Below, one piece after another: positions 3,644 through 40,900 of a stretch of DNA of 64,000 nucleotides. The DNA is from Scenedesmus sp. PABB004. Lineage: Eukaryota. The position numbers and the translations under genes were made by a program. Under the pieces are notes generated by a model. It did not search any database and had not been told where the DNA came from. It saw only the letters and a list, made by a program, of their open reading frames with translations. The number at the start of each line of letters is the position of its first letter. The stretch's first letter is position 1. The stretch covers positions 434,001 through 498,000 of the forward strand of contig CM026547.1 of the NCBI GenBank assembly GCA_014905635.1. The letters run 5' to 3'.

Positions 3644-4891
3644 ATGCTGTCCATGGCGTCCCGCCTGGCGGCGCAGTGGGCCGCTGCGTCGCTGCCGCGG
3701 CGCGCGGTCCCGCTGCGCCAGGTGCCGGCCGAGTTTGGCGCGCCGGCGCTGCTGCCGCCGCCGGCGCCCGCCGGCGCTGGCGCGCCCGCCGGCGCGGGGG
3801 CGGCGGCGCTGGAGCTCGTGCCCCTGACGGCCCTGGCGGCGGAGGCGATGCCCGGCCGGCCGCGCGCCCGCACGCGCGGCGGCGCGGAGCCGCACGGTGG
3901 CCCGCGCCCGGGCGGCGCGCCGCGCCGCGCGTCGGCGCCGGGCGGCGGCCTGCGCGCCGCGTCGTCGCTCGCGGGCGCGGCCGACGCCGCCGCCGCCGAC
4001 GCGGAGCCGCTCGTCGTGTGCTGCGGCTGGCTCGGCGCCAAGAAGCGCCCGTTTGGCAAGTGAGTGGCTCGTGGTCAGCCCCGCCCGGGCTGCCGCACCC
4101 CTCCCGCACCCCTCCCACGCCGCTCGCGCCGCTGCCGGCGCCGCCGCAGGTACAAGGCGCTGTGGCAGTCGCTCGGCGTGCGCCGCGTGCTCTCGGCGCG
4201 GCCGCCGATGGCGGCGATCATGGTCCCCGCCGCGGGGCAGCTCCTCGCGGCGCAGTTCACGCACCAGCTCCTCGACGCCGCCGCGGCGGCGCCGCGCGCG
4301 CCGATCGTGGTCCACCTCTTCAGCGGCGGGGGGTTTATCTTCATGACCTGGGTCTTCCAGCTGCTCGCGGAGCTCGACGGCCCCGCCGCGGCGGACGTGC
4401 GGGCGCGCGTCGCGGGCGTGGTGTTTGACTCGTGCCCCGCCGACGTGTCGGCCGACGTCTCGTCGCGCGCGCTCGTCGCGGCCGCGCTCGGCCGCCCCGC
4501 CGACGGCATCGCGCAGGACTTCCCCTGGCTCGTGCGCCCGACGGCCGCGCTCGTGGGCGGCTACTTCAGGCTGCCCTTTGTGCGTGACGCGCTCGTGGGC
4601 CTCGAGTCGACCTGGGCCGCCGCCGCGCCGCGGTGCGCCAAGCACTTCCTCTACTCTGACGCCGACCCGCTCATCGACCCCGCGGTCGTGGAGAGCTTTG
4701 CCGCGGCGCAGGCGCGCGCGGGCAGCGCGGTGAGCGCGCACAAGTGGGCCGACAGCGGGCACGTCGACCACTACCGCTGCCACCCGGAGGCGTACGCGGA
4801 GCAGCTGCGCGCGTTTGTGCGCCGCGCGGTCGCGCTGCAGCGCGCCGGCAAGGCCGGCGGCGGCGGGGCGACCGGCGAGGAGCTGGTGTGA
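3644..4891 (+). CDS. DUF829 / TMEM53-like alpha/beta-hydrolase-fold protein, 2 exons (3644-4059, 4150-4891), probable transit peptide
   Basis: LVVCCGWLGAKKRPFGK|YKALW, VHLFSGGG, GVVFDSCP, FLYSDADPLI, SGHVDHYRCHPEAY motifs; GTGAGT donor at 4060, CAG acceptor ending 4149. Confidence 0.88.
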
Positions 4892-5456
4892 CGGGCTGAC
4901 TCGCCGGAGCGGCGCGGGGCCGCCGCGCTGCGACACGCGCGGGCGGCGGCGAGCTGTACATGCAGGATGAGGGGCGCTGGGCGGCGCTGTGCTGTTGCTG
5001 CTGTACAATTGCAAGCAGCGGGGGGTCTCCAGAGCGGTGTGGTGTGGAGCGTTGCGGTGTGGCGTGGAGCGTTGCGGTGTTCCTCGCGTCGCCGCCGCAC
5101 CGACAGAGTCGTCGTCGCCATCAAACAGAGTTTGCTGCTCGTCGCGCTCAAACAAAATCGTGTCGCCGCCGCCGCTAGGGGTACATCGCGCGCGCGCGTG
5201 CCTGCAGCACGCCGCTCGGACAGGTCGCGCGCCGCGCAGAAAAAGCAGAAAAAGCAGAGACAGCACACACACAGAAAACGACACAGATTTCTTCAACAGG
5301 ACAGGTGCACGCTGTCGCGCCCCTCGTCGACTGAACGGGGGGCTGCGCGCACACGCTCTCTCCACCGCTGGTGGTGGTGGCCTCGCGGCCACGCAGGTGC
5401 AGCTCGCTCACTGCTCTCCGCCGCCACGCGCCGTGCGGCGCCGCCGGCACGCACGC

Positions 5457-6959
5457 TCAGCACGCGGCCGGCGGCGCGTCGACGAGGCCCGCCGCGGCGG
5501 CCTCGGCCGCGAGGCTCAGGAACGCGGCGCGGCAGGGCGCGTCAAAACCTCCCGCAAACTGGTGGAGCTTGAACAAAAACGTCAGCGACTCCTCGAGCTG
5601 CCGCGCCGTCGCGTGCGCGAGCGCCGCCGCGGCGCGCGCCTGCGCGCGCGCGAGCGCCGCGGCCTGCCGCCCGTCGCGCACGGGGCAGCCCCACATCGCG
5701 GCGCCGGCGCCGGCGGCGAGCTTGGCGCGGCCCTCGCCGAGCACGGCGAGCACGGCGCGGCCGTATGCGGCGCCGAGCTGCACCGCCGCGGCCTTCACGC
5801 CCGCCACGAGCTGCCCCCCGTTCCAGGGCACGCCCGCGGCGCGCATGCGCTTCTCAAACCCGCCCTCGCCGCGCTGGAACGCCTCGAGCTTGGCCGTCAC
5901 GGCGCCGTACGCGCGCGCCGCGTCGGCGGCGGCGGCGCCGGCGGCGGCGCCGCCGCGCGCCGCGCCCGCGTCGGCGGCGCGCGCGGCGGACAGGCACTGC
6001 TGGCGCAGCTCCAGGAGCTGCCCGTACACCACGGCGCCCTCCCAGAGCGTCTCCCACTTGGCGGCCGGCCACGACGGCACCTGCTTGAGCGCAGCGCGCT
6101 CGTCGTAGAGGGCGTCCAGCGTGCCCTGCTGCGCTGCGCCGACAAACTCGACCAGCGCCGGCATGCTGGGCGGGTTGAACGCCGCGACGCGGCCCGCGAG
6201 CGCCTCGAGCGCGGCGCCGTGCGCGGCGAGGTCGGCCTGCACGCGCGTGCAGTAGCTGCCCCGGCTCAGGATCTGGCTGAACAGCTCCGACGCGTCGCCC
6301 GGCCCCGCCGCCGCCGCCTCGGCCGGGCGCGGCGCGGCGGCGGGGCCGCGCGCGCGCGCGCCGCCGCCGCCGGCCTTGATGCCTGCGGCCGCGAGCTGGC
6401 GCCGGCGCAGCTGCTGGTACGTCGCCAGCACCTCCGGCACGCGCCCGATGCCCGCCGCGGCCAGCGCCGCCGAGCCGGCGCCGCCCCCGCTGGGCGAGCG
6501 GTGCAGGGGGCTCGGCGGCGCGCGCGGCGCCGCGGGCGGCGTGCGCCCACCGAGCCCGGGCGGCGCGGGCGCCGGCGCCGGCGACGGCGCGGCTGGCGGC
6601 TCGCCGGGCGCCGCGGCGGGCATCTGCCACGCCAGGCACTCCTCCTCGTCCAGCTCCTCCACGCCCGGCTGCGCCCGCGGCGTGGAGGCCGTCGGCGACG
6701 CCGGCGCCCGCAGCTGCTGCGGCTGGGCGGCCGGCTGCGGCGGCGGCGCCGCCGCGACGGCTGCGGCCGCGGGGCTGTGCGGCCGCGCACGGGCAAAGCC
6801 CTTGTGCGGCGGCGGCGGCCCCGGCGGCGGCGGCGGCGGCTTGGCCGGCGACGGCGACGGCGACGGCGCCGACAGGGCGTGCGCGAGCGGCGCCGCGGCG
6901 CGGCCGCTGCCCGCGCGCTGCAGCGCCGGCGAGGAGCCGGCGCTGCGCAGCGCCGCGGG

Positions 6960-25385: not shown

Positions 25386-27420
25386 ATGGCCACGCGCCTC
25401 CAGCGGCCGGCGTGTCCCGGCTGCAGCGCCCCTGCACCAGCAGCAGCCAGCACGCGCCGCAGCCGGCGGCCGCGCGTCGCCGCGATGGCGGCGGCCGGCG
25501 CGGCGCAGCAGCAGCCGGCGGCCGCGCCGCCGGGCGGCGCGCCGCCCGCGCCGACGGCCTTCCTGCGCAAGCACCTGCTCCAGCTCGCGCCCTACACGCC
25601 CATCGAGCCGTTCGAGATCCTCTCGGCGCGCTACGGGCGCGCGCCGGGGGACATCGTGAAGCTCGACGCCAACGAAAACCCCTACGGCCCGCCGCCCGAG
25701 GTGCGCGAGGCGCTCGCGGCGATGCCCTTCCCCCACATCTACCCCGACCCGGAGACGCGCCGCCTGCGCGCCGCGCTCGCGGAGTGGACGGGCGTGCCGA
25801 TGGAGCACCTGCTGGTGCGGCGGCGGGCGCCTGCGCGCGGCGGCGCACGCACGCGGCAGCGGCGCGCGCCGCACACGCGCCGCACACGCGCCCGCACGCG
25901 CCGCCGCGCCCGGCAGCGCCCCCGCGCTGCCCCCACGCCGCCGCCGCCGTTGGCACGGCAGGTCGGCTGCGGCGCGGACGAGCTGATCGACCTGCTGATG
26001 CGCTGCACGCTGGAGCCGGGCGACGCGATCGTGGACTGCCCGCCCACGTTCACGATGTATGCGTTTGACGCCGCCGTCAACGACGCGCGCGTCGTCACCG
26101 TGCCGCGGCTGCCGGGCTTTGCGACCGACGTGGAGGGCATCCGGTGCGCCGCCGCCGGGGGCCGCTGCGCGCTGCCGCGCGCGGGCTGGGAGGCGGCCGC
26201 GGCCCGGGCGCAGCAGGCGCAGCGCGGCGCGCGGCGCGCCCCGGCGGCGGGCCGCGGGCGGCGCGCTGCCGCTCACGCGCCGGGGCTGGCTCTCGCAGGC
26301 GCGCCGTCGCGGAGCACGCGCCCAAGATTGTGTTTCTGACCAGCCCCAACAACCCCGACGGCAGCGTCATCAGCGACGCCGACCTGCGCGCGGGTGCGCA
26401 CGCACACACACACACACGCACGCGCCGCGGCCGGCGGGGCGGCGGCCGCCCGCGCACCGGACGCGGCCGCCCAGCCCGCGGCGGGGACGGGCGCGCCCCC
26501 TTCTCTCTCTCTCTCTCTCTCTCCCCGCCCGCGCGCCGTCGCACACGCCTCACGCACGCGGCCCGCCCGCCTGACCGCCCCGCCGCCGCCCGCCCGCCCG
26601 CCCGCCCCCGCGCAGTGCTGGCGCTGCCGGTGCTGGTCGTGCTGGACGAGGCGTACATCGAGTTTGCGACCGACCTGCCCTCCCGCATGGCCTGGGTCGC
26701 GGAGCACCCCAACCTCGTCGTGCTGCGCACGTTCAGCAAGTGCGCCGCGCTCGCGGGGCTGCGCGTGGGGTACGGCGCGTTCCCGCTGGGAATGATCGAG
26801 TACCTCTGGCGCGCAAAGCAGCCGTACAACGTCTCCGTCGCGGCGGAGGTGACGCGGCGGCGCGGCGCGGCGATGCTGGTCGCGGGCGCGGCGGCGCGGC
26901 GGGCGCGCGCGCGCGCGGCGCTGACCCGCGGCCGCGCGCCGCCGGCGGGCGCGCCGCAGGTCGCGGCGTGCGCGGCGCTGACCAACCAGGGCTACCTGGA
27001 CACGGTGCGCGACGCGCTGCTCGCGGAGCGCGCGCGGCTGTTTGCCGCGCTGAGCGGCGTGCCCTGGCTGGAGCCGTTCCCCTCAAACGCCAACTTCATA
27101 CTCTGCAAGGTCGACCAGGTGCGGCGCCCGGGCGCACGCCCAGGCGGCGCGGGCCGCGTCGGCGCCGTGCCGGCGCCGCGCGCGGTCGACGTCTTGGCCC
27201 CCGGCCGCAGCGGCGCCGCCGCCGCGCGGGCGCCGCCCCGGCCCCGACGCGCCGCGCGGCGCCGCAGGGGCGCGACGCCAAGGAGGTCAAGGACGCGCTC
27301 GCGCGGTCGGGCATCATGGTGCGCCACTACGCCAAGGCCGAGCTCTCGGGCTACATCCGCATCAGCGTGGGCAAGCCGGAGCACACCGACGCGCTGATGG
27401 CGGCGATCAACGCGCTGTGA
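25386..27420 (+). CDS. hisC: Histidinol-phosphate aminotransferase (HisC/HISN6), chloroplast, 6 exons
   Basis: [51 protein letters not shown] (PLP lysine), IRISVG. Confidence 0.96.
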
Positions 27421-27603
27421 GGGGCCGGCGCGGGTGTGTCGCCGCTCATTTGACCTCGGCCCTGACCTGGCGCCGGCCTGGCCGGCGGGCGCGAACGTGC
27501 ACACGTGGCTGCTCGCGCGCGCGCGCATGCGCGGCGGCGCGGGCGGCGGCGTGCGCAGGCGCGCGCGGCAACGGCTCGTCACCGCGACGGCGCCCCCGCG
27601 CGC

Positions 27604-30144
27604 TCACGCGGCGAGGCGCTGCATCAGCGCTGCGTTCGCCGCCAGCATCTGCTCCACCGCCGCCTGCCGCGCCGCCGCGTCGCCGGCCGCCGTCCCCAGC
27701 GCCGCCAGCCCGCCCCCGCCGCGCCAGCCGCCGCTGCCGCGCAGCGACGTGGCAGCCAGGCTGCTGCGCACGCTGCAGCCACCGGCGCTGCTGCCGCCCA
27801 GGCCGTCGCCGCAGCCGGTGCCCCACTGCCGCCGCGCGTGGGGCGCGGCAGCCCAGGGCGGCGCCAGCTCGGCCGCCTCGGCCGCTGCCGCGGCGGCCGC
27901 CTCCGCTGCCGCAGCAGCCTCTGCCTCCGCGGCCGCCGCTTCGGCCTCCGCGCCCGCCGCTTCGGCCAGCGCGGCCGCCTCGGCGCCCGCCGCCGCCTCG
28001 GCGTCCGGCGGCAGGCGCTGTCCGCTGCCCCAGCCGCAGATGGCGGCCATGCGGGCGGAGCTGCGCAGCTCGGCAGCCACCAGCGCCTGCGCGGCGCGGG
28101 GGCGGCGCTCGGGCGGCGCCGCGGCGCGCGCCATGCCGCCGCGCGCGGCGCCCGGACCCCACGCGCACCTGCTGGCGCAGCGCCGCCGCGCGCTCCGCGG
28201 GGCTGGTCGCCGCCCAGGCCGCAAACTCCAGCGCCGCCTGCACGTAGCCCTCCACGCCCACGGGGTTGCGCGGCACGACCTCGCGCCGGCTGCCGTCCGG
28301 CAGCACGAGCGCCGCGACGCCGCGGTCGGGCGCGAGGGTGAGGAGGGTGCGGTCAGCAAACACGACGCGCACGCGGCCGTCTGCGTGAGCGATGAAGCGC
28401 CCAACGCCGGGGACGTCCTGCGTCTCCACCTCCTCCGTGCCAGTGCTGCCCGCGCCGGCGCCGGCGCCGGCGGCCCGCAGCGCCAGCGCGCGGCATGCGG
28501 CGGCCGCGGGCGCGCGCCCGCCCGGCGCGGCGGCGGCGCCCGCGGCGGCGTCGAGACGCGCGCACTTCGCCCGCACCATCGCGCTCCTCAGCGCGAGCGC
28601 CTGCGACGCGACCTGGCCGATGGGGAGCTTGACGCCGCCGCGCCCCGCGCCCGCCGACGCCACCGGCAGCTCCGGCAGCGCGCTGGCGGCAAACACGCGG
28701 CTCATCGCGCTCGCGTCGATGGTCCCGTCCAGCAGCCCGAGCGCGTCGCCGCCGCCGCCGCCGCCGCCTTCCGCGGCCGGCCCGCCCACGCCGGCCGCCG
28801 GCGCGCGCGTCTGCAGGTGCGTGACAAACGCGCCGGCCTGGAAGCTGTACAGGCAGGAGTCGTCGGCGTGCAGCCACACCTCCACCTCCTCCACCTCCTG
28901 CGGCGCACGCGCGGCGGCGCGGGTCGCCACGGGCGGGCGGCAACCAACGGCGCCGCAGCTGCCGGCAACTGAGCCGGTGCGCAGCGCTGCCGCCGCCGCC
29001 GCGGGCGCACCCGCACGAAGATGGTGGTCGCTTCGCGCGTCCACACCATCTGCAGCAGCTCGTCCGACGGCGGCAGCAGCGACGGCTCAAACCACCAGCC
29101 GCGCCCCAAGCCCGCACTGCCGCCGCCCGCGGAAGAGGGCCGCTGCCCCAGCGCCTGCGCCAGCGCAGCGGCGACGCGGCCGCCGGCGGCGGGCCCCGGC
29201 GCCGGCGGTGGCTGCTCCGGCGGCAGCCGGCCGCCGAGCTGCCGCCACTGCTGCTGCACGTGCGTGGGCAGCGTCTCCAGCAGCTCGCCGCTGATCGGCA
29301 GCTGCGTGGCGCACTCCGCGGCGCTCATGCCTCCCTCCGGCGCCAGCTCCTGCGCCAGCTGCTGCTCCGGCAGCACCAGCGCGCCGAGCCGCGCGGGCGA
29401 CGACGGCGGGCTGCCGGCGCCCCCGGCGCCGTCGCCCGCGGGCTGCTGCCAGCCGCGGTGCTGGCGCTGCAGCGGGCTGCCGAAGCGCCGCGGGCTGCCG
29501 CCGGCCGCGGCCGTGTCGCCGCGCGGCCAGGCCTGCGCCGCGGGGCCGGCCCCCGGCGCCGCGAGCGCCGCCGCGAGGGCGAGCGGCGCCGCCCAGCGGG
29601 GCGGGAACTGGCTGCGCGAGAAGACCTGCGTGTGCCAGGAGTAGGTGTAGGTGCCCGCGCCCGCGTCGTGGTGGAGCAGCAGCGGGTATGTGACCGCGAA
29701 GCGCAGCCCCGCCTGCTCCAGCACGAGCCGCGCCGCGCCGCAGCTGCTGCGCAGCGCGAGCCGGCAGCCGTCGGGCAGGCGCTCCGCCAGGCCGGCGGCG
29801 AGCGCGGCGCGCGGGCTGCGCGGCCACGTGGCCGCCAGCAGCGGGTAGCCCAGCGTCGCGAGGCCGCCGGCGGCGCGGGCCGCGGCGGCCGCGTGCGCCG
29901 GCAGGCGCGGCACGTCGACGTGGCGGTTCCTGAACTCCAGGAGCTCCACCAGCGCCGGCGCAAAGGCGCTGAGGCAGCAGGCGGACAGCTGCGTCGTGCG
30001 CGTGCGCGGCGGCGCGGCGCCGACGTGCGTGAAGCTGTCCGCGCCCGCGCTGAGCACCAGCAGGCTGTTGTCGTCGTAGAGGGCCTTGACGGCGCCGTCG
30101 ACGGCCACCCAGATGCGCTCCAGGCGCGGCGGCGGCGCCGCCAT
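27604..30144 (-). CDS. C5orf34-like protein (DUF4524/DUF4520-type domains), 3 exons
   Basis: N-terminal DGAVKALYDDNSLLVLS...LLEFRN and C-terminal VPGVGRFIAHADGRVRVVFADRTLLTL resemble metazoan C5orf34. Confidence 0.68.
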
Positions 30145-30764
30145 CGCGCCCGGCGAGCGAGCTCCGCTGCTCGCGCGCGCGCCGCTCAACAACGCGCCGC
30201 CGGGCGGCCCCGCGCCGAGGCGTGGGCAGCGTGACAACGTGCGGGCGGGCTGTTGGCGCTGCGGAGCGCAGGTGCGGGGCGCTCACGGCTCGCCCGGCCG
30301 GTTGCCGCCCCCGCGGCGCCGCCGCCGGGCGCGCCCCGCCAGGTGCTGTCCTCTGCTGCTGGGAGGTGGCGCGTGTGGCGCGGGGGGTGCCATAGCAGAG
30401 GGCCCTGCTCGATGCGCGCTGCCGTTTTCGTCGCCGCAAACCCGCCGGCCGTGACGTCGCCGGCCGGCCGGCGCACGCGCGTGCGTCGGCGTCGCGCCCA
30501 CCCCCACATCCCGCCCGCCCTGCCTGCTGTCCGACCGATCGCCCGCAGCCCTCGCGCGCACGCGCACGCGCCGCCGCTGCCGCCGCCGCCGCCCGACGGC
30601 CGCCACCGCGCCGGCAACCGCTGCAACCACCGCCTCAGGCGTGCGCGGGGCGCGCCGCCGGCGTCGCCGGCCACCGCGCCGCCGCCCGCGCCGCCGCGCG
30701 CCGCCGCCCGCGCCGCCGGCCCGGGCCCACGCGCGCTGCCCTGCGCGCGCGCAGGCCACGCGCG

Positions 30765-33355
30765 ATGGCGCCGCGGCCCGACTTTGTGTTTGAGGCCCCC
30801 GTGCCCGAGGCCGCGCTGTCGTCGCCGCGGGAGCTCATCAAGGCCTCCCTCTTCGAGGGCAAGCTGCGACTGACCATCGCGGGCGACACGCAGTGAGCCC
30901 CGGCGCTGGCTCGGCCCCCGCCACGCGCCCTCGCGGCCGCCGCTCAATCCTGCTGCGCTCGACCCCTCCTGCCCCCGCGCAGGGAGGTGGCGCTGCCGGA
31001 GGACGCGTTCGTCGACGACGCCTCGGCGCGGCTCGCGGGCCGCACGCTCACCGTGCGCGTGGCGCGGCGCGACCCGCAGGGCCCCGCGATGCAGGCGCGC
31101 ACGCGTTGTGCGCGCTGCCGCGCAGCGCCTGCGCGCCGCGCGTGCGCCGCGCCTGCGCCGCGCTCGGCAGCCGTGGGCGGACGGGGCGCCGCCGAACCGC
31201 CGCACCGCCGCGCGGTCGCTCCCGCGCTGACGCCGACCCCTCCAGGAGAAGCGGCTGTTCAACCCGGACCGCCACCCCGTCGAGCTGGACGTGGCGCTGC
31301 CCAAGGAGCTGATCAACAAGCTGCCCAAGTGCGACCGCGCCACCGGGGGCCGCCGCCGTGCCGACCGCCGCCGCGCCGACCGCACCGCGACGTCGGCCGC
31401 GCCGCGGCGCCACGCGGCGCAGGTCGCCGCTGAGCCCGGCGCACGCGGACAAGACGCCCGCGCAGACGAGCGCGGGCGAGTTCAGCGACTCGCTCATCCA
31501 GGTGCGGCGGCGGCGCCGCGTGCCTGTGCACGCCGGCACACGCATGCGCGTGCGCACGCGCGTCGCCTCGCGCCCACGCGCGCCGCCCGTGCTCGCCGAC
31601 GCCCCACCGCGCACGCTGTGCGGGGCGCACCCGCGCCCGCGCGCGTGCCGCAGGGCGGCCCCGCGGCGGCGTACAAGATGCCGGCGGTCAACCTCGGCAG
31701 CAGCATCGTCACCGCGATGCCGGTGCTGGTCAACCAGGCGCGCGACCGCTGCCGCCGCTGCCGCTGCTCCTGCTGTTGCAGCCCAGCCCGCCGACCGCTG
31801 GCCGCTCCGCCGCCGTCGCCCGCCGCCGCGCGCGTGCGCAGGGCGGCGCCATGGACACGGTGAGCCAGGGCGAGACGGTGACGCGCGTGCCGGGCTCCAC
31901 CGACGTCCGCCACCTCACGGGCCTGGTCGAGTCCCCCGGCGGCGCGCCGCCGAGCGCGGAGGAGCTCGCGTGCCGCCTGCGCGACACCGCGGTGCGCCGG
32001 CGGCGGCGCCACGCCCGCGCGTGCACAGGCTGCACGCGTCCGGCGGCCGGCCGCGGGCGCCGAGCGCTCCGCGCCGCGCAGGTGCACGACCTGCCACCGC
32101 CCGGCGCGAGCGTGGAGCAGGGCGCCAGGCCGTTTGAGACCGAGGCGACCTACGACGAGGCGGCGGCCGCGCCCGCGCGCCCCGGCGCGGCGCCCGCGCC
32201 CGCGGGCGACGACGACGAGGCGCGCGCGCTCGCGACCGGCGCGCGCGGCGAGAAGGTCAGGTGAGGCGGGCTGCACGCGCGCCGGGGAGCGCTGGCGGGC
32301 CAGCCCTGCACGCGCACCGCCGCCGCGGCACGCGCGACCACCCCGCGCCGCATGGCCGTGCCTGCAGGTCCGACTATGTCGGCGCCGGCCCCAAGGTCGG
32401 CATGGAGTACGTCGAGCGCACCGCCGCGGCCGCGTACGTCGGCTCCGTGACGGGTGCGGCGGCGCCACCGGCCCTGCCAGGGCGCCGCGCCGTGCCCTGC
32501 GCTGCCGCCGCGAGCGCCGCGGCGCGGCGGCCCGCGTGCGCAGGCGCGGAGCCCATCAGCTCGCTCAAGACGCCCGGCGCGGCGCTGTGCGACCTCTGCG
32601 GCTGCGCGCCCTGCCAGTGCCACCACATGAGGCGCACCGGCGGCGCCGGCAACAACCCGTACGAGGTGCGGCGGTGGGGGCAGATGCGGCAGAGGCAGGC
32701 GCTCCGCACGGCACGCCGCACGCCAGGGCGCTGCCGCAGCGCTGCCCGGCGGCCGCGCGCCGACGCCGCGGCCGCCCTCCCCCTCCTGCAGCTGACCGCG
32801 CCGGAGACCAAGCGCGGCGGCAAGCCGGCCATCCACAGCCACGCACACGCAGTCACCGGCACGCGCGGCCACGCCAAGCAGGCGCGGCCGCGCGCGGGCC
32901 GGGCGGCACCGGCCAGCCGGTGGGGGGCCGGCGCGCGCGAGCTGAGCTGGCTGCCTGCGCCGCCCGCCGCAGTTTGACCCGCACCACGTGGGCGTCGGCG
33001 CGCGCCTGGCCGACTTCAAGGGCAACGTGCCGGGTGCGCGGCGGGCGGCGCGCTGGCGCGCTGCGCCGGGCGTGCCCGCGCGCCTGCGGTGGCGGCGGCC
33101 GACCCCGAGCGCCCGCGCCGCTGCTTGCTTGCCGCGGCGTCGCGCCGCGCCGCGCCCGCAGAGGGCCACGGCGACGCCGGCGACCCGCGCGACGTCGGCG
33201 CGGCGCACGCGGCGCACGGCGCGCACGGCGCGACGCACGCCGGCGGCGCGCCGATCGAGATGGGCGGCCCCGGCAAGCGCCACGGCTCGGAGGCCGCGAG
33301 CGGCGCGCGCACCGCGGGCGGGCACAAGACGACCTTCCCCGGCGCGCTCGGCTGA
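30765..33355 (+). CDS. 12-exon protein with an N-terminal HSP20/alpha-crystallin-like domain, a CxxCxCxxCxC cluster and a His/Gly-rich tail
   Basis: All 11 introns splice in frame (3 GC donors); IKASLFEGKLRLTI..EVALPEDAFVDDASARLAGRTLTVRV resembles ACD strands; CDLCGCAPCQC. Confidence 0.7.
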
Positions 33356-34096
33356 GCCCGCGGCGCGCGAGTGAGGGTGGACCGAGGCGGCGCGCGGCGT
33401 GCGCGCAGTGGGAGGCGTGCGGGGGGCCGGGCCACGCGTTGCGCTGCAGGCCGCTGCGTGTTGTGTGTGCGAGCCCCCGTGTTGTGCGGAGTTGCGCAGG
33501 GCAACCGGCAGGGGCTGTCGCTCCAGCGGCGAGGCGCCGCCGGCAGCGCGCGCTGCGCTGGCGGCGGGCGCGGCGGGGGCACAGCGCGGGCAGCGCTGGT
33601 GCCGGCAGCAGCGTTGCGAGTGCGTCCGCTGATCGCCGAGCGCCAAGGGCGCCCCTCCGCACGGCAGCAGGGTGCGCTCGCGGGCGCGCGCCAGCTGCTG
33701 GCTGCCTGCGTGGACGGCGCGCGTCGCGAGCGCTTGCGGCATTGCCGTGGAGGCGAACGCGGCCCATCCGGCAGTGCGGGGTCGCGCGTAGAGTGCGCCA
33801 GGGCCACAATAACACCGCGGGTGCATCATGAGGGAAGGCTGGCAACGCAGGGCGGCGCGGCGCGGGCGCGCGAGACCAGCCGGGGCGGCGCTGGCCGCCC
33901 GGCGTGCTGCGGGTGGCTGCGGCCGCGCAGCGCCTTGGCCGCGCTCGCGCCTCAATCTGCGGGTGGCGTGCGGCGTGCTGCGTCGGGCGGCCGCGGGCGC
34001 TGCGCGGCCAGGATGGGGTCCACGGGGGTTCACGGGTGGAGGTGTTGAAAAACACCATTTTGGGCTGCTCACTGCAATGGCCGCGGCTCGGGCTGC

Positions 34097-35636
34097 TCAC
34101 TGCACCCAGGGAGGGGCGGCGAGGGCGACCGGCGCAAAATGCTGGGTCAGGATGTGCGGCGACACCCCGGGCCGGAGGGGCATGCGCAGCGCGCCGGGCG
34201 CCGCCAGCTCCAGCGCCTGCTGCTGGTTGTTAATCGTGATGGCCGCCAGCAGGTTGTTGGCGCGGTCGCACAGGCAGAGGCCGTGGACCAGGTAGTGCCG
34301 CCAGCGGCTGGCAAGCACCGCGAACGGGTTGTCAAAGGTGCGCTGGCCGCCCCCAGGTCCCGTGCCGCTGCTGGGGAACCGCAGCCGCTGCTGCGGGGTC
34401 ACCAGGGCCTCCACGGCCTCTCGTTGCGCCGGCTGCTGGAAGGCCGCGGTCCAGCTCCGGAGGGTGAAGTCCAGCGCGCTGCCAGCGCCCCAGCTCAGGC
34501 TCTGGTGCTCGCTGGGCTGGCCCGGGCGCATGCCGAACCAGCAGTAGCCCAACGCCATGAGCTTGTAGCCCTTGCGCAGGCAGCAGCCGGGCAGCACGAT
34601 GCCCTCGAGGAACTCGGCGGTGCCCCCGTGGCGGGTGACGTACGCCGTCCCGGCCGCGTCGTCGGCGCGCCAGCCCAGCAGCTCCTTGAAGAGCACCCAA
34701 CCGACGGCGGGCACGTTGCTGGTGGTGAAGTCGGGGATGAGCGCAGAGGAGCGGGCCCGGTGCTGCGGCCGGGTGACGTGCCTGTGGTCAAACTTCACGC
34801 AGCCATCGCCGTCCCAGAGGCCGGCGATGAGCAGCCGCAGCGTGAGGCAGACCGGGGGCCCAATGTCCATGATGGGAGCGGCCAGGATGGCGCTCAGGAT
34901 GGGGTTGTAGGCCAGGATGGCGTCGACGCGGGTCCGCATCATCTCAATCTGCGGCCCCTCGTCGACGTCGCCCCAGTCGTCCACAATGAACATATCCGGC
35001 AGCTGCGGCACCGCCTCGTCCGGCATCGCCACAAAGCCCTGCGCCGCGCCGGCGACCATCGCCAGGGACAACAGCTTGGGCCCGATGGTTGGCGCGAGCG
35101 GCAGCAGCTCCTGCGCCACCCACACGGCGGCCGCGCCGTACGCGACCAGCGCGTGGGGGTGCTCGCCGTTGTTGAACAGACCCACGTTGACGAGGTGGTC
35201 GTGCGGCACCTCCACCACGACAAACAGGTTGGGGTCGGCGGCCCACGGCGGCGCGTAGGCGAGCAGCCGCAGCCGCAGCTCGGCCAAGAAGGTTTGGGCG
35301 CTCTGCGCAGGAGCGGGGCGCCCTCAGCGCCGCCCGGTCCGCCACCCCGCGCCCGCGCGCGCGCCCGCGCGCGCGCGCGCCCGCCGCGCGCGGCTGACCG
35401 CGCCGCCGCACCTGGCTGAAAACCACCATGTTGCCAGCCAGCCAGCCCTCATGCCAAGCCGAGCCGTCGGCGGCCCAAAAGGCAGCCGCGTGCAGGAAGA
35501 AGCAGGACCTCAAGAGCACAGGCCAGAAAGCCTCGGGGTAGCCGTGCGCAGCAAAGCACTCCTGCAGTTTGTTGAACCAACCCGCAGACTCCACGGAGGT
35601 GTTGGCAATGCTGTCGGGGGTCAACTGCGCTGCCAT
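34097..35636 (-). CDS. Putative single-motif LAGLIDADG endonuclease-domain protein (476 aa), exons 35636-35412 and 35302-34097
   Basis: Phase-0 GT-AG intron joins ...[16 protein letters not shown]...; [15 protein letters not shown]...FTTSN...LFKELLG...[15 protein letters not shown] follows the I-CreI pattern; lower GC than neighbours. Confidence 0.72.
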
Positions 35637-35677
35637 TGCGGCGCTGCCGGGCGCCCTGCGGCGGCGACGGCGAGCGT

Positions 35678-36113
35678 TGGCGCTGCGCCGCCGCTTGACC
35701 GCCGCGTCGTCGCGCGGCCCCGCGCCGCACGCCAGCCGCGCTGCGCTTCGCGGCCGTAGCGCACCGTGATCAGCAGCTTCGGCGCGCGGGCGCGGCGCGA
35801 GAGTGTCGCGGCCGGCCGCGAGCGCCGGCCACGCGAGCAGCGGCGGGCGCGCCGCGCCTGGGGTGCGGCGTGGCGGGCGGCGAGCGTGGCAGGGGTGGAG
35901 GGCGTCAGCCCGTCGAGGTGTGTGGCCGTGCAGGAGTGGTGCGGGGCGGCCCAGCGCGGCGGTGCGGGGCGGCGCTGCGCCGCCGCTTGACCGCCGCGTC
36001 GCCGCGCGGCCCTGCGCCGCACGCCCGCCGCGCTGCGCTTCGCGGCCGGAGCGCACCGTGATCAGCAGCTTCGGCGCGCGGGCGCGGCGCGCGGGAGTGT
36101 CGGCCGCGAGCGC
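35678..36113 (+). repeat. ~145-bp direct repeat pair (35678-35825 / 35970-36113) upstream of the LAGLIDADG gene
   Basis: ggcgctgcgccgccgcttgaccgccgcgtcg...gcaccgtgatcagcagcttcggcgcgcgggcgcggcgcg present twice. Confidence 0.9.
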
Positions 36114-36152
36114 GGGGCGCGCGAGCTGCAGCGGGCGCGCCGGGCCTCCCGA

Positions 36153-36207
36153 CTGCACCAAGGGCGGGGCGGCGACCGGCGCAAACTGCTGGGTTAGGAT
36201 GTGCGGC
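36153..36207 (+). repeat. Direct repeat of the LAGLIDADG gene 3' end (34099-34160)
   Basis: actgcacc.aggg.ggggcggcga...ccggcgcaaa.tgctgggt.aggatgtgcggc; translates [18 protein letters not shown] vs [20 protein letters not shown]. Confidence 0.9.
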
Positions 36208-36241
36208 CGGGCCCCGTCCAAAGCTGCCGTCATGTTACAGT

Positions 36242-36625
36242 CCGCCGCCGGACGCGCCGCGCGCCGCGCTGCGCCTGCTGCGCCCAGGCCGCGGCCGCCT
36301 CCCAGCCCGCGCGCGGCGGCGGCGGCGCACCGGATGCCCTCCACGTCGGTCGCAAAGCCCGGCAGCCGCGGCACGGTGACGACGCGCGCGTCGTTGACGG
36401 CGGCGTCAAACGCGTACATCGTGAACGTGGGCGGGCAGTCCACGATCGCGTCGCCCGGCTCCAGCGTGCAGCGCATCAGCAGGTCGATCAGCTCGTCCGC
36501 GCCGCAGCCGACCTGCCGTGGCAACGGCAGCGGTAGATGTGGGGGAAGGGCATCGCCGCGAGCGCCTCGCGCACCTCGGGCGGCGGGCTGTACGGATTTT
36601 CGTTGGCGTCGAGCTTCACTACGTC
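36242..36625 (-). pseudogene. Inverted partial copy of hisC (source 25650-26249, with ~200-bp internal deletion)
   Basis: [29 protein letters not shown] and [15 protein letters not shown]...VEGIR, plus intron sequence. Confidence 0.93.
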
Positions 36626-36627
36626 AG

Positions 36628-37360
36628 CCGTCTCGGAGCTGACGTACGCGTCCGCGGCCATGCCGACCTTGGGGCCCGCGCCGACATAGTCGGACCTGCA
36701 GGGCAGGCATGGCCAGGCGGCGCGGGGTCGGTCGCGCGTGCCGCGGCGGCGGTGCGCGTGCAGGGCTGGCCCGCCAGCGCTCCCCGGCGCGCGTGCAGCC
36801 CTCGGCGCCGGCGGCCGGCCGCCGGACGCGTGCGGCCTCCTGTGCACGCGCGGGCGGGGCGCCGCCGCGGCGCACCGCGGTGTCGCGCAGGCGGCGCGCG
36901 AGCTCCTCCGCGCTCGGCGGCGCGCCGCCGGGGGCGTCGACCAGGCCCGTCAGGTGGCGGACGTCGGTGGAGCCCGGCACGCGCGTCACGGTCTCGCCCT
37001 GGCTCACCGTGTCCATGGCGCCGCCCTGCGCGCGCGCGGCGGGCGGCGGCGGAGCGGCCAGCGGTCGGCGGGCTGGGCCGCCGCCGCTGCCGGCGGCGGC
37101 GGCGGCAGCGGGCGCGCGCCTGGTTGACCAGCACCGGCATCGTGGTGACGATGCTGCTGCCGAGGTTGACCGCCGGCATCTTGTACGCCGCCGCGAGGCC
37201 GCCCTGCGGCACGCGCGCGGCCGCGCGCCGCACAGCGTGCGCGGCGGGGCGTCAGACAGCGGGGGCGGTGCGCGCGGGCGCGAGGCGACACGCGCGCGCA
37301 CACGCGTGTGTGTGCGCGGCGTGGCACAGGCACGCGGCGGCGCGGCCGCACCTGGATGAG
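36628..37360 (-). pseudogene. Inverted partial copy of the HSP20-like gene (source about 31494-32453, one exon deleted), fused to the hisC fragment
   Basis: YKMPAVNLGSSIVTTMPVLVNQ, GGAMDTVSQGETVTRVPGSTDVRHLTGLV and SDYVGAGPKVGM exons with their introns. Confidence 0.93.
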
Positions 37361-37741
37361 GTTGACCGCGCACTAGGTGGGTGACCGCCGGCGGCAGCGC
37401 ACGCTGACGCCCGCCGCGGGCGGGCGCGGCGCAGCAGCCGGCGGGACAGAGGCGCCAAGGTCGCGTTTGAGGTGCTGCGCCCGGCCGCCGCGGTGCGCGC
37501 ACTGCCGGCTGCGCTGCGTGCTCTGACCCGCCCGACGACTACCAGCCGCGCCCCGACGGCCGCTGCGCCGTTTAGCCCACCCGTAGTCTCGCGTCCCAGC
37601 AAGCTCCAGGAACTCCACCCCAACCTCTGCTGCGGCGGCGGGCGGCGCCGGCGCCCGGTCCGCCGCTCGCGCGCGTGGCCGGCGCTGGCCAGCTGGAGCC
37701 ACCCGGCAGCCCCGGACGCAGCGCGGGCACCCCGCGCGCCG

Positions 37742-37852
37742 CCGGCGGCAGCAGCGGCGGCCTGGGCAGCCCGCGCGCCGTCGCCGGCGGCAGCGGCGGC
37801 CTGGGCAGCCTGCGCGCCGCAGGCAGCAGCAGCGGCGGCCTGGGCAGCCCGT
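37742..37852 (+). repeat. Three ~35-bp tandem units (gcagcggcggcctgggcagcc core)
   Basis: Direct inspection. Confidence 0.8.
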
Positions 37853-37989
37853 GCGCGGCAGGTGAGCCCAAGTAACACGCGGGCCCACATCCGCTGCGAG
37901 TGCTGTCGAGCGCGGCCGGGCCCCGTCCAAAGCTGCCGCCGCTGCGTGCCAGCGCCGATCAGCGCCGCGCGCGCGCCGTCCAGGCCACC

Positions 37990-40900
37990 ATGCAGCAGTC
38001 CCTGCGCGGCGCGGCCCGGAGCGCGAGCGCGAGCGCCCCGCGTGCCACGCTCCACGCTGCCCCGCGACTGGCGGGCGCGTCCGCGCGCGGCGCGCGGGCC
38101 ACGCCAGCCCTGGCGCGCCAGGGCGGCCCCCGGAGCCATGCCACAATCGTGAAGGCCGTCGCGGAGGCTGTGGAGAACAGGACCGACAACCAGGGCCTGG
38201 TGCGCGCAATTGGCGCGCCGCGGCGCCAATGGGCGCGGCGTGGCGGCCATGCGGGCCGGCGCGGGGCGCGCGCGCGCCGCTGCCGCTGCCGCCCGGCGCT
38301 GCCCCCCGCCGCCGCCGCGGCCCTCCCGCTCCGGCGCCCGGCCCGCCCTCCCGGCCGCCGGCCGCCCTCGCCGGCCGTATCGCGCCGCGCCGCCCGCCGC
38401 CCACGCTCGCTGCGCCGCCGCGCCAGGCGCTGTACGAGGTCGATCCGCAGCTGCTGCAGCACCGCGACCACCTGGACTACCGGTGGAACCAGTTCTGCGA
38501 CGTCAAGGGCAACATCGAGCGCAACGTCGGCTCGCTCGCCGAGTTTGCCAAGGCGCGGCGCGGCGCGGCCGCGCGCGGGAGCCCTGGCGCGCGCCCGCGC
38601 CGCGCTCCCTCCCGCAGGGCGCCGCGCCGCGCCGCCGCGCGCGCCGCGCCGCCCTCACGCGCGCCCCGCCGCCGCCTTGCCCGCCTCCCGCCCCGCTGTC
38701 CCTCCCGCCTGCTGTCCCGCGCTCAGGGCTATGAGAGCTTTGGCATTGTGCGCAAGGGCAACAAGACCGTCTACCGCGAGTGGGCGCCCGGCGCGCAGGC
38801 CTGCGCCCTCATCGGTGCGGCGCGCGCCCGCCTGCCGGCGCGCGGCGCGGCGCGGCGGCGCGGCGGCGCAGGGCGCGGCGCGGCGCAGGGCGCGGCGCGC
38901 CGGCGCGCGTGGCTCGGGCGCCGCCACCGACGCCGACGCGCGGCGCCGCGTGGGCCGCGCCGCGCAGGCGACTTCAACAACTGGGAGCCCACATGGATGA
39001 ACAAGGATGAGTGGGGCGTGTGGAGCGTGGAGCTGCCCGACGGTGCGCGGCCGCCAGCAGCGGTAGCAGCAGCGCCGGGGGCCGCAGCGCCAGCGGAGAC
39101 AGCGCCAGCGGGACAGCAGCAGCGGCAGCGGCGAGCAGCGGCCCTCGCCGCCGCGCGCGCGCCCCTCACCGCGCCCCGCCCCTCCCTCCGCCGCCGCCGC
39201 CGCGCCGCGCGCGGCGCGCAGGCCCCGACGGCGCGCCCGCGATCCCGCACGGCAGCCGCGTCAAGGTGCGCATGCAGAGCTTTGGCGACTGGTGGGTCGA
39301 CCGCGTGCCCGCGTGGGTGCGCTATGCGACCATCCCAGAGGGCGTCATGGGCGCCAAGTACGATGGCGTGCACTGGGACCCGCCGCGCGGCGAGCGCCAC
39401 GTGTGGTAAGTTGTTGCCCACGCCGCGCGCCGGCAACGCGCGCGCGCCGGCGGCGCCGCGCGCGCGCGCCGTGGACGCGCCGCCTCGCGCGGCGACGGCC
39501 CGCCGCGGCCGCGCCGGCCCACGCACGCGCCCGCGCCGCGCCTTTTGCGCCGCGCCGCGCAGGCGCAACAAGCGCCCCGGGCGGCCGTCCAGCCTGCGCA
39601 TCTACGAGGCCCACGTGGGCATGAGCGGCGAGGACGAGCGCGTGAGCACGTACGCCGAGTTTCGCGACAACGTGCTGCCCCGCATCGCCAAGCAGGGCTA
39701 CACCGCGGTGCAGCTCATGGCCATCCAGGCGCGCGGCTGCGCGGCGGCAGCAGCGGCGCGGCGGCGGCGGCGGCGGGCAGGGCAGGGCAGGGCAGGGCAG
39801 TCGGCGGGGCCCGCGGCTGCCCTCACACTCTCGCCTCCACCCCTCGCCCTCACCCCACACGCCCGCCACCCCTGTCACGCCCACCCACACCCACCCACAC
39901 ACCACACCCACCCACCCACCCACACCGCAGGAGCACGCGTACTATGCGTCGTTCGGGTACCACGTGACCAACCCCTTTGCGCCGAGCAGCCGCAGCGGCA
40001 ACCCGGAGGACCTCAAGTCCCTCGTCGATGCGGCGCACGGGCTGGGCCTCGTGGTGCTGCTCGACGTCGTGCACAGCCACATCAGCTCCAACGCCGACGA
40101 CGGCCTCGCGGGTGCGGCGGCGCTCGCGCTTGCGGGGGCGCGCGCGCGTGTGCTCCTGTCTGCGCGTGCGCGGCGCGCGGCCGCCCGCCGAGCCGCCGCT
40201 GAGCCGCCGAGCCGCCGCCCGCGCGTCCCGCCGCGGCCGGCCGCGCAGGCTTTGACCTCGGCCAGGCCCAGGACTGCAACTACTTCCGCTCCGGCGAGGC
40301 GGGCTACCACAAGCTCTGGGACTCCCGGTGCGCGCGGCGGCGGCGGCGCCGCCCGCCCGCCCGCCGCCGCCCGCCCGCCCGCGCACGCCGCCGCACGCCC
40401 CCGCCCGCTCTCCCGCGCACCCGCCCGCCATCCGCCCCACCCTCCCGCCGCGCCGCGCCGCCGCGCCGCCGCCAGGCTGCTCAACTACGGGCACTGGGAG
40501 GTTCAGCGCTACCTGCTGTCCAACCTGCGCTACTGGCTGGAGGAGTTCCAGTTTGACGGCTTCAGGTGCGGGCTGGCCCCGCCGCGCTGCCCGCCTCTCC
40601 CTCTCCCTCCCTCGCTCCCTCCCTCCCTCTCAGCCTCCCGCCCTGCCTCTCCCTCCCCTGCCTCTCCCTCTCCCTCTCCCTCCCCTGCCGCCTCTCCCTC
40701 CCCGCCGCGCGCCGCCCCCGCTCACCGCCCGGCCGCGCTCCCCTAAACCCTGCAGGTTTGACGGCGTGACGAGCATGCTGTACCACCACCACGGCATCGA
40801 CACCGCCTTCAGCGGCGGCTACCACGAGTACTTTGGCCCCCAGGCGGACGTCGAGGCGGCGGTGTACCTCATGATGGCAAACGCGATGATTCACGACATC

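Follow-up and report, generated by a model that had tools for sequence, protein, structure and literature searches.

What does a solitary, intron-containing nuclear gene of the green alga Scenedesmus sp. PABB004 encode, when its product carries a single LAGLIDADG-like motif? LAGLIDADG enzymes are known mainly from organellar or microbial introns and from inteins; free-standing nuclear genes of this kind, such as HO and WHO of yeasts, are rare, and have shaped mating-type switching. The gene considered here lies on the minus strand between 34097 and 35636 of a 64-kb stretch of contig CM026547.1 (GenBank assembly GCA_014905635.1, contig positions 434,001–498,000). This whole stretch is called the window below, and coordinates refer to it. 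A reading of the letters alone (the sequence-only reading) had seen an I-CreI-like homing-endonuclease domain in the gene product and had proposed either a selfish element or a domesticated DNA-binding protein. On balance, our analysis leans towards a divergent, host-resident, single-motif LAGLIDADG-type protein. That the protein contains a divergent LAGLIDADG-type domain is likely, judging from the motif, the spacing of a lysine-bearing helix and many weak, concordant searches. The gene appears to be long resident, and possibly domesticated, rather than caught moving.

A genuine two-exon nuclear gene

The open reading frame (ORF) is split over two minus-strand exons and encodes 476 residues plus a stop, in a window whose guanine-plus-cytosine (GC) content is 78.4%. 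Its parts are listed here, with GC at codon positions one, two and three given as GC1/GC2/GC3.

35412–35636, minus strand: exon 1, 75 codons, ATG at 35636–35634, GC1/GC2/GC3 0.56/0.51/0.79
35303–35411, minus strand: spliceosomal-type intron, GT..AG, 109 nucleotides (nt), 91% GC
34097–35302, minus strand: exon 2, 401 codons plus TGA stop at 34097–34099, GC1/GC2/GC3 0.71/0.48/0.935

Long ORFs come cheaply here (33500–36500 is overlapped by 41 stop-to-stop ORFs that are 50 residues or longer, reaching 649 residues), and the coding signal was therefore tested directly. The periodicity of exon 2 resembles that of two exons of the neighbouring HisC gene (histidinol-phosphate aminotransferase; GC3 0.93–0.94), and the pattern is lost in shifted frames. 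Scanning 30000–38500 for the same signal makes 34110–35340 on the minus strand by far the longest coding-like block. Exon 1 has a weaker signal (GC3 0.79) and is needed because the start codon must come from there, a stop codon lying in the exon-2 frame at 35324–35326. Its end is common to the ORF and the NCBI model P0001, and NCBI's own model uses the same 35411–35303 intron. The clean two-exon ORF of the sequence-only reading thus holds in all its parts: exon coordinates, GT..AG intron and coding periodicity.

Could the frame still be spurious, a by-product of high GC, or have arisen as an artefact of annotation? Stop-free frames of 400–650 residues are common in all six frames here, and the NCBI model for the locus is a chimera. 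Set against this, the third-position GC periodicity is strong and specific to the ORF's frame, and the ORF has homologues of quite different composition, the best with an expectation value (E) of 5.5e-9. We consider this explanation close to refuted: the ORF is a real nuclear gene, adapted to its host, Scenedesmus sp. PABB004.

Gene GC is 69.6%, against 78.4% for the window and 79–81% for the flanks. The earlier observation of lower GC than in the neighbours is correct as a figure and fails as a sign of foreign DNA: the difference is a coding effect, arising because GC2 is 0.48 in coding DNA, and with GC3 at 0.935 a foreign origin was rejected. The spliceosomal-type intron and host-like codon bias agree with the description of the gene as nuclear and intron-containing, and together they point to long residence. 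The low repeat content given for the published genome (1.31%; PMC12571836) also favours a resident gene.

A small family built around one motif

The features of the encoded protein (hereafter the window protein) that matter for its assignment all map to exon 2.

34523–34843, minus strand: putative single LAGLIDADG-type core domain, approximately residues 229–335, from the motif helix to the LRKGYKL helix, common to the relatives P0002 and P0003
34790–34834, minus strand: LAGLIDADG-like motif and first strand, residues 232–246, D241 at the catalytic acidic position
34559–34579, minus strand: LRKGYKL, with LRKG-KL unchanged in all family members and K319 placed 78 residues beyond D241
34268–34378, minus strand: family-specific C-terminal block FPSSG...VLASR..Y..HG..C, marked by invariant columns of the family alignment

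The motif exceeds chance. A generalized pattern of our own, G-[hydrophobic]2-D-[GA]-[DE]-G, is found a single time when the window is translated in all six frames, and in none of 100 first-order Markov simulations of it. It is the one LAGLIDADG-type motif recognizable in the window protein, and both it and the later strings quoted by the sequence-only reading are present as described.

An exhaustive HMMER search of 1.84 billion representatives returned two matches, P0002 (257 residues, E 5.5e-9) and P0003 (299 residues, E 2.4e-5), whose sources are a Joint Genome Institute metagenome and Logan assemblies. They are 30–37% identical to the window protein, and their motifs, YVAGLFDAEGCVYF and YVGSFFDAEGSVFF, are closer to the canonical form than its own. 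Both alignments span the motif to the C terminus. All three proteins possess the motif region, LRKG-KL some 75–78 residues later, the FPSSG block and a similar C-terminal end; an N-terminal stretch is common to the window protein and P0003. The block itself has no match in Pfam, PHROG or NCBIfam. Three distinct family proteins are thus known in public data. Word-indexed searches with alignments found no further members, a weak negative given that one such search missed even P0003, and metagenome scans found no DNA locus for P0002 or P0003. No orthologue in other algae was found among public proteins, a result compatible both with a resident gene that evolves fast and with an element of patchy spread. 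The family is very small and is not captured by Pfam.

Within the family, D..[DE]G-[CS]-V-x-F-x-H is kept in all three members; the acidic residue at the motif end is D241 in the window protein and glutamate in both relatives, in the same alignment column; and the lysine of LRKG (K319) is kept throughout. The sequence-only reading had the catalytic aspartate and a distal lysine conserved and the glutamine not, and all three statements stand for the window protein, with the addition that both relatives carry the glutamine. The comparison here is with the residue roles in I-CreI. Outside the core, ~230 residues at the N terminus and ~140 at the C terminus contain no known domain, as had been noted.

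The exon-1 string AFWAADGSA (residues 52–60; 35458–35484, minus strand) resembles the GFFAADG motif 1 of two-domain LAGLIDADG proteins from bacteria of the candidate phyla radiation (CPR), although the match is not significant (hhalign P 0.11). The N-terminal region was also tried as a degenerate first LAGLIDADG domain, prompted by WAAD strings at residues 54–57 and 95–98, and rejected: there is no profile signal, and the score of the N-terminal 150 residues against the first domains of two-domain enzymes (7.4) is reached by 59 of 60 shuffles.

Concordant searches point to LAGLIDADG enzymes

The strongest link is to the CPR proteins. Twelve of 14 loci were used, the truncated ORFs of L083 and L091 being left out, and all 12 proteins match PF14528 (E ≤ 1.1e-10). 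With hhalign, the family aligns to these proteins with a probability of 93.3–94.8% (E 2.7e-7 to 5.2e-8) over 88–89 columns, from the motif to the LRKG-KL helix. By BLASTP, P0002 is colinear with one CPR enzyme over 110 columns (E 1e-7), and the window motif pairs with motif 2 of the CPR LAGLIDADG enzymes (probability 66%, P 5.6e-5, 22 columns). LRKGYKL falls opposite the L-RK--F / KK-QA helix in the verified enzymes, though this portion of the alignment is not significant by itself.

Viral proteins provide a second reference. From 78 motif-bearing viral ORFs, 16 short ones with an early motif were sent to Pfam and 13 matched PF00961; 11 of these were aligned, leaving out L030 (below the Pfam cut-off) and L049 (scores identical to those of L005). 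The family aligns to the 11 with hhalign probabilities of 29–48% (P 1.8e-4 to 5.8e-4), a score reached by none of 100 column shuffles. Both reference sets were picked by LAGLIDADG-type motif patterns, from our general consensus for the viral set and from the family's own motifs for the CPR set.

Other searches agree in direction. Against solved structures, the family profile scores best with I-MsoI (E 0.16) and next with the LAGLIDADG endonuclease 4lq0 (E 0.72), neither match being significant. The P0002 motif matches phrog_5046 (E 0.0046), and a protein language-model search places both proteins tried nearest to named LAGLIDADG clusters (0.86 and 0.89). An NCBIfam search gave noise only, and tblastn of P0002 against phages gave seven records (E 2–9), none informative. 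Two viral ORFs of 122 residues (L079, 7017–7385; L080, 5869–6237) have a motif, YVAGLFDGEGSVYF, that differs very little from the one in P0002; their matches to the LAGLIDADG models of Pfam (E 0.001–0.008) fall short of the cut-offs.

In a low-confidence model of P0002, elements are arranged in the order helix-strand-strand-helix-strand-strand-helix. Foldseek with this model finds LAGLIDADG enzymes in eight of the first 12 rows, at E 0.6–1.6 and a template-modelling (TM) score of ~0.2. A homodimer prediction for domain residues 1–126 scored 0.00; run without controls or a family alignment, it counts neither way.

Taken as a LAGLIDADG-type protein, the central ~110 residues would form a highly divergent domain, with a motif helix ending in D-G-D-G, a strand and a final LRKG-KL helix. 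By analogy with single-motif LAGLIDADG enzymes, we infer that two proteins may pair through their motif helices, and that the dimer would bind a specific DNA site of roughly symmetric sequence and probably cut it, D241 holding a metal ion.

A free-standing gene beside an upstream patchwork

The gene is free-standing, as the sequence-only reading had it. An Rfam scan of 30000–40000 found no family, Intron_gpI included; the window contains no transfer RNA (tRNA) genes; and neither a Hint/intein domain nor any other Pfam domain is found in the window protein. Its two flanks do not add up to a single split gene. Mobility, which had also been suggested, is unsupported: apart from a 62-nt fragment, only one complete copy occurs in the 64 kb of the window.

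A series of diverged copies of nearby DNA adjoins the ATG on its upstream side.

35645–36147, no strand: two tandem copies at ~290-nt spacing, 86–87% identical
36152–36207, minus strand: diverged copy (84%) of the last ~20 codons of the ORF (34160–34099), ending at the stop codon position
36242–36625, minus strand: dead HisC-like fragment, copying 25650–25743 and 25924–26250 at 91–95% identity
36625–37360, minus strand: inverted duplicate (84–89%) of 31493–32456, the 5′ part of an unnamed plus-strand gene

Between the copy of the ORF 3′ end and the HisC fragment, 27 nt of this patchwork repeat 37912–37938 exactly. The HisC fragment has an internal deletion and begins mid-exon. No sequence common to the patchwork breakpoints was seen by eye, save a possible 3-nt overlap at 36625. 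Judged from its sequence, the patchwork looks like break repair with copied filler.

These copies explain the NCBI protein HT031_000085 (644 residues; 34097–37179, minus strand), which is a chimeric model: its first four exons comprise the duplicated 5′ exons of the other gene and HisC pseudo-exons, joined to the 476-residue ORF. The idea that an element had interrupted HisC was rejected. The fragment has no continuation beyond the ORF, where the remainder of HisC is missing, and an apparently intact HisC-like gene (PF00155) with a transit-peptide-like start occupies the plus strand between 25386 and at least ~27100; this gene is the source of 36242–36625.

Several further observations concern the neighbourhood. 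The segments 31493–32456 and 36625–37360 are inverted repeats bracketing the ORF. The exons of the unnamed gene (31170–32700, plus strand) are short and coding-like, and Pfam finds nothing in it. A C5orf34-like gene (27449–30282, minus strand; PF15016 E 1.6e-19, PF15025, PF22833) separates HisC from the duplicated region. No TGTAA polyadenylation signal was found downstream of the stop codon, with five TGTAA in the window against 3.5 expected; one (36235–36239, minus strand) falls exactly at the junction of HisC fragment and filler, probably by chance. Three tandem 39-nt units, 87% identical, occupy 37718–37856 in GC-rich DNA.

Weighing the assignment against alternatives

Several results weigh against a LAGLIDADG assignment, and some of them speak for a rival, a lineage-restricted protein of another fold with a LAGLIDADG-like stretch of ~16 residues by chance. 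The Pfam search that the sequence-only reading had proposed as a check on LAGLIDADG_1/3 came back negative for the window protein, P0002 and P0003, none of which matched a family even at E ≤ 10. A phmmer search of the window protein against the PDB gave seven matches (E 0.54–2.5), none of them LAGLIDADG, and the language-model match is a lead only, both values lying below the tool's own line of 0.9. Cutting out the motif lowers the hhalign score for the viral set to 9.0 (shuffles 10.0 ± 1.6); cutting out both motif and first strand leaves 10.0 for the CPR set, a score reached by 72 of 100 shuffles. The signal thus vanishes without these elements, and all significant similarity is confined to ~16 residues. 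The P values are flattering, moreover, because the reference sets were chosen by motif patterns, and the window protein alone aligns over just 18–22 residues. It has also replaced the second-strand glutamine, which in both relatives aligns to that of I-MsoI. AlphaFold models of the 401-residue exon-2 protein and of P0002 (from a four-row alignment) have predicted local distance difference test (pLDDT) scores of 35.0 and 38.0, both too poor to use, and the Foldseek result counts for little at E ≥ 0.6 and TM ~0.2. Most of the protein is unrecognized, and its N-terminal 150 residues are unlike a first LAGLIDADG domain. Chance resemblance accounts poorly for other results. The motif is kept, and is more canonical, in relatives of such low identity; it appears in no simulated window; the weak post-motif matches are colinear and at the right distance, LRKG-KL facing the K-rich segment of the last helix; and four unrelated kinds of search rank LAGLIDADG enzymes top. 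We hold another fold to be unlikely, though it is the foremost rival. What survives of the I-CreI-like LAGLIDADG domain first proposed is one motif, its acidic residue and a profile link to verified enzymes; no Pfam family recognizes it, and similarity beyond the motif and first strand is not significant. The I-CreI-like label itself is unsupported; the best solved-structure match is I-MsoI.

If the domain is of LAGLIDADG type, the gene might still be selfish and active, a homing endonuclease gene that stands free in the nucleus, possibly works in an unorthodox, WHO-like way, and made the adjacent patchwork through its cutting and the repair that ensued. The acidic residue is kept in all members, and the distribution is patchy, the only relatives being two environmental or assembly-derived proteins and public algal orthologues being absent. 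The upstream chain (the ORF's own 62-nt 3′ end, the 27-nt copy, the HisC fragment, 0.7–0.9 kb of another gene and the tandem repeat) is unusual for this genome, given as 39.8 Mb with 78.5% GC and 1.31% repeats in its published description (PMC12571836). WHO elements leave fragments of essential host genes beside the endonuclease gene (PMC7282813; bioRxiv 10.64898/2026.08.13.744650). The arrangement here is not that of WHO, however: the HisC piece is an internal, dead fragment with a deletion, and the intact HisC, which has no connection to the ORF, lies on the opposite strand at a distance of ~8.7 kb. Nor does Pfam find a Hint domain or zinc finger; there is a single full copy; the duplicates are old, being 84–95% identical; the codon bias is fully host-like and an intron is present; and ordinary break repair may build such a patchwork with no link to the window protein. 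An active element seems improbable to us, and so, slightly more, does the fuller claim that a nuclear selfish element of green algae, from a LAGLIDADG family missed by current models, built the patchwork by its own cutting. It is very improbable that the gene descends from an organellar-intron LAGLIDADG gene and that its product, like plant OTP51, is targeted to an organelle as a maturase-like splicing helper. I-MsoI, the best solved-structure match of the family profile, is presumably encoded in a green-algal chloroplast ribosomal RNA (rRNA) intron, which would suit such an origin. The protein nonetheless has no pentatricopeptide repeat (PPR) or other RNA-binding Pfam domain and one recognizable motif only, AFWAADGSA falling short of significance. 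Read by eye, without a predictor, its N terminus contains acidic residues and few arginines, and so looks unlike a transit peptide, whereas HisC starts with an Arg/Ala/Ser-rich segment. A precedent exists in OTP51 itself, a nuclear LAGLIDADG-motif gene serving organellar intron splicing (PMC8393795).

Comparison with known systems

We return to the favoured reading, a divergent and host-resident LAGLIDADG-type protein, to place it among known relatives. OTP51 of plants is alike in being a nuclear gene with LAGLIDADG-type sequence (PMC8393795), and differs in having PPR repeats and two motifs, neither of which was found in the window protein. The WHO and HO genes of budding yeasts are alike in being nuclear, free-standing LAGLIDADG genes with fragments of essential metabolic genes alongside. 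Their proteins are intein-derived, carry a zinc finger and are encoded directly downstream of FBA1, replacing its 3′ half; the window protein has no Hint domain or zinc finger and one recognizable motif, and the HisC piece beside its gene is a dead internal fragment, with the intact gene 8.7 kb off on the other strand.

We know of no nuclear homing-type LAGLIDADG element in Viridiplantae, and none is among the literature matches listed. Were the gene a selfish element, it would be the first such case known to us, parallel to yeast WHO. Were the LAGLIDADG assignment correct, domains of this type would be kept, or would spread, in algal nuclei too, and the family would represent a very divergent branch missed by curated models and a possible new specificity scaffold.

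Single-motif enzymes (PF00961, LAGLIDADG_1; I-CreI and I-MsoI) share with the window protein one motif helix that ends in an acidic residue and glycine and is followed by a strand. They also share a lysine-bearing last helix, which in the window protein lies ~78 residues after the motif acidic residue, a distance that we take to match that in I-CreI. I-MsoI as the top structure match and the weak profile similarity to the 11 viral PF00961 proteins point the same way. The window protein departs from these enzymes in its lack of a Pfam match, its ~230 extra N-terminal and 140 C-terminal residues and its lack of the second-strand glutamine; its gene is nuclear, with a spliceosomal-type intron and host codon bias, and lies outside any group I intron.

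The double-motif proteins of CPR bacteria (Patescibacteria; PF14528; L082–L095) are ~210–230 residues long, with two domains, and in the loci checked their genes lie among tRNA genes. Five two-motif genes (L085, L086, L088, L092 and L093, around 5400–6400) stand beside tRNA clusters, not rRNA, and L092 has a group I intron at 4136–4345. The algal protein shows no detectable first domain, and its similarity to the CPR enzymes is not significant outside the motif and first strand. The motif region is thus the one firm LAGLIDADG link of this three-protein orphan family, and on sequence grounds the family is a plausible lead. The second domain of the CPR proteins is nevertheless its best profile match (probability 93–95%), and their FDGDGCVYF-type motif is nearly identical to that of the family.

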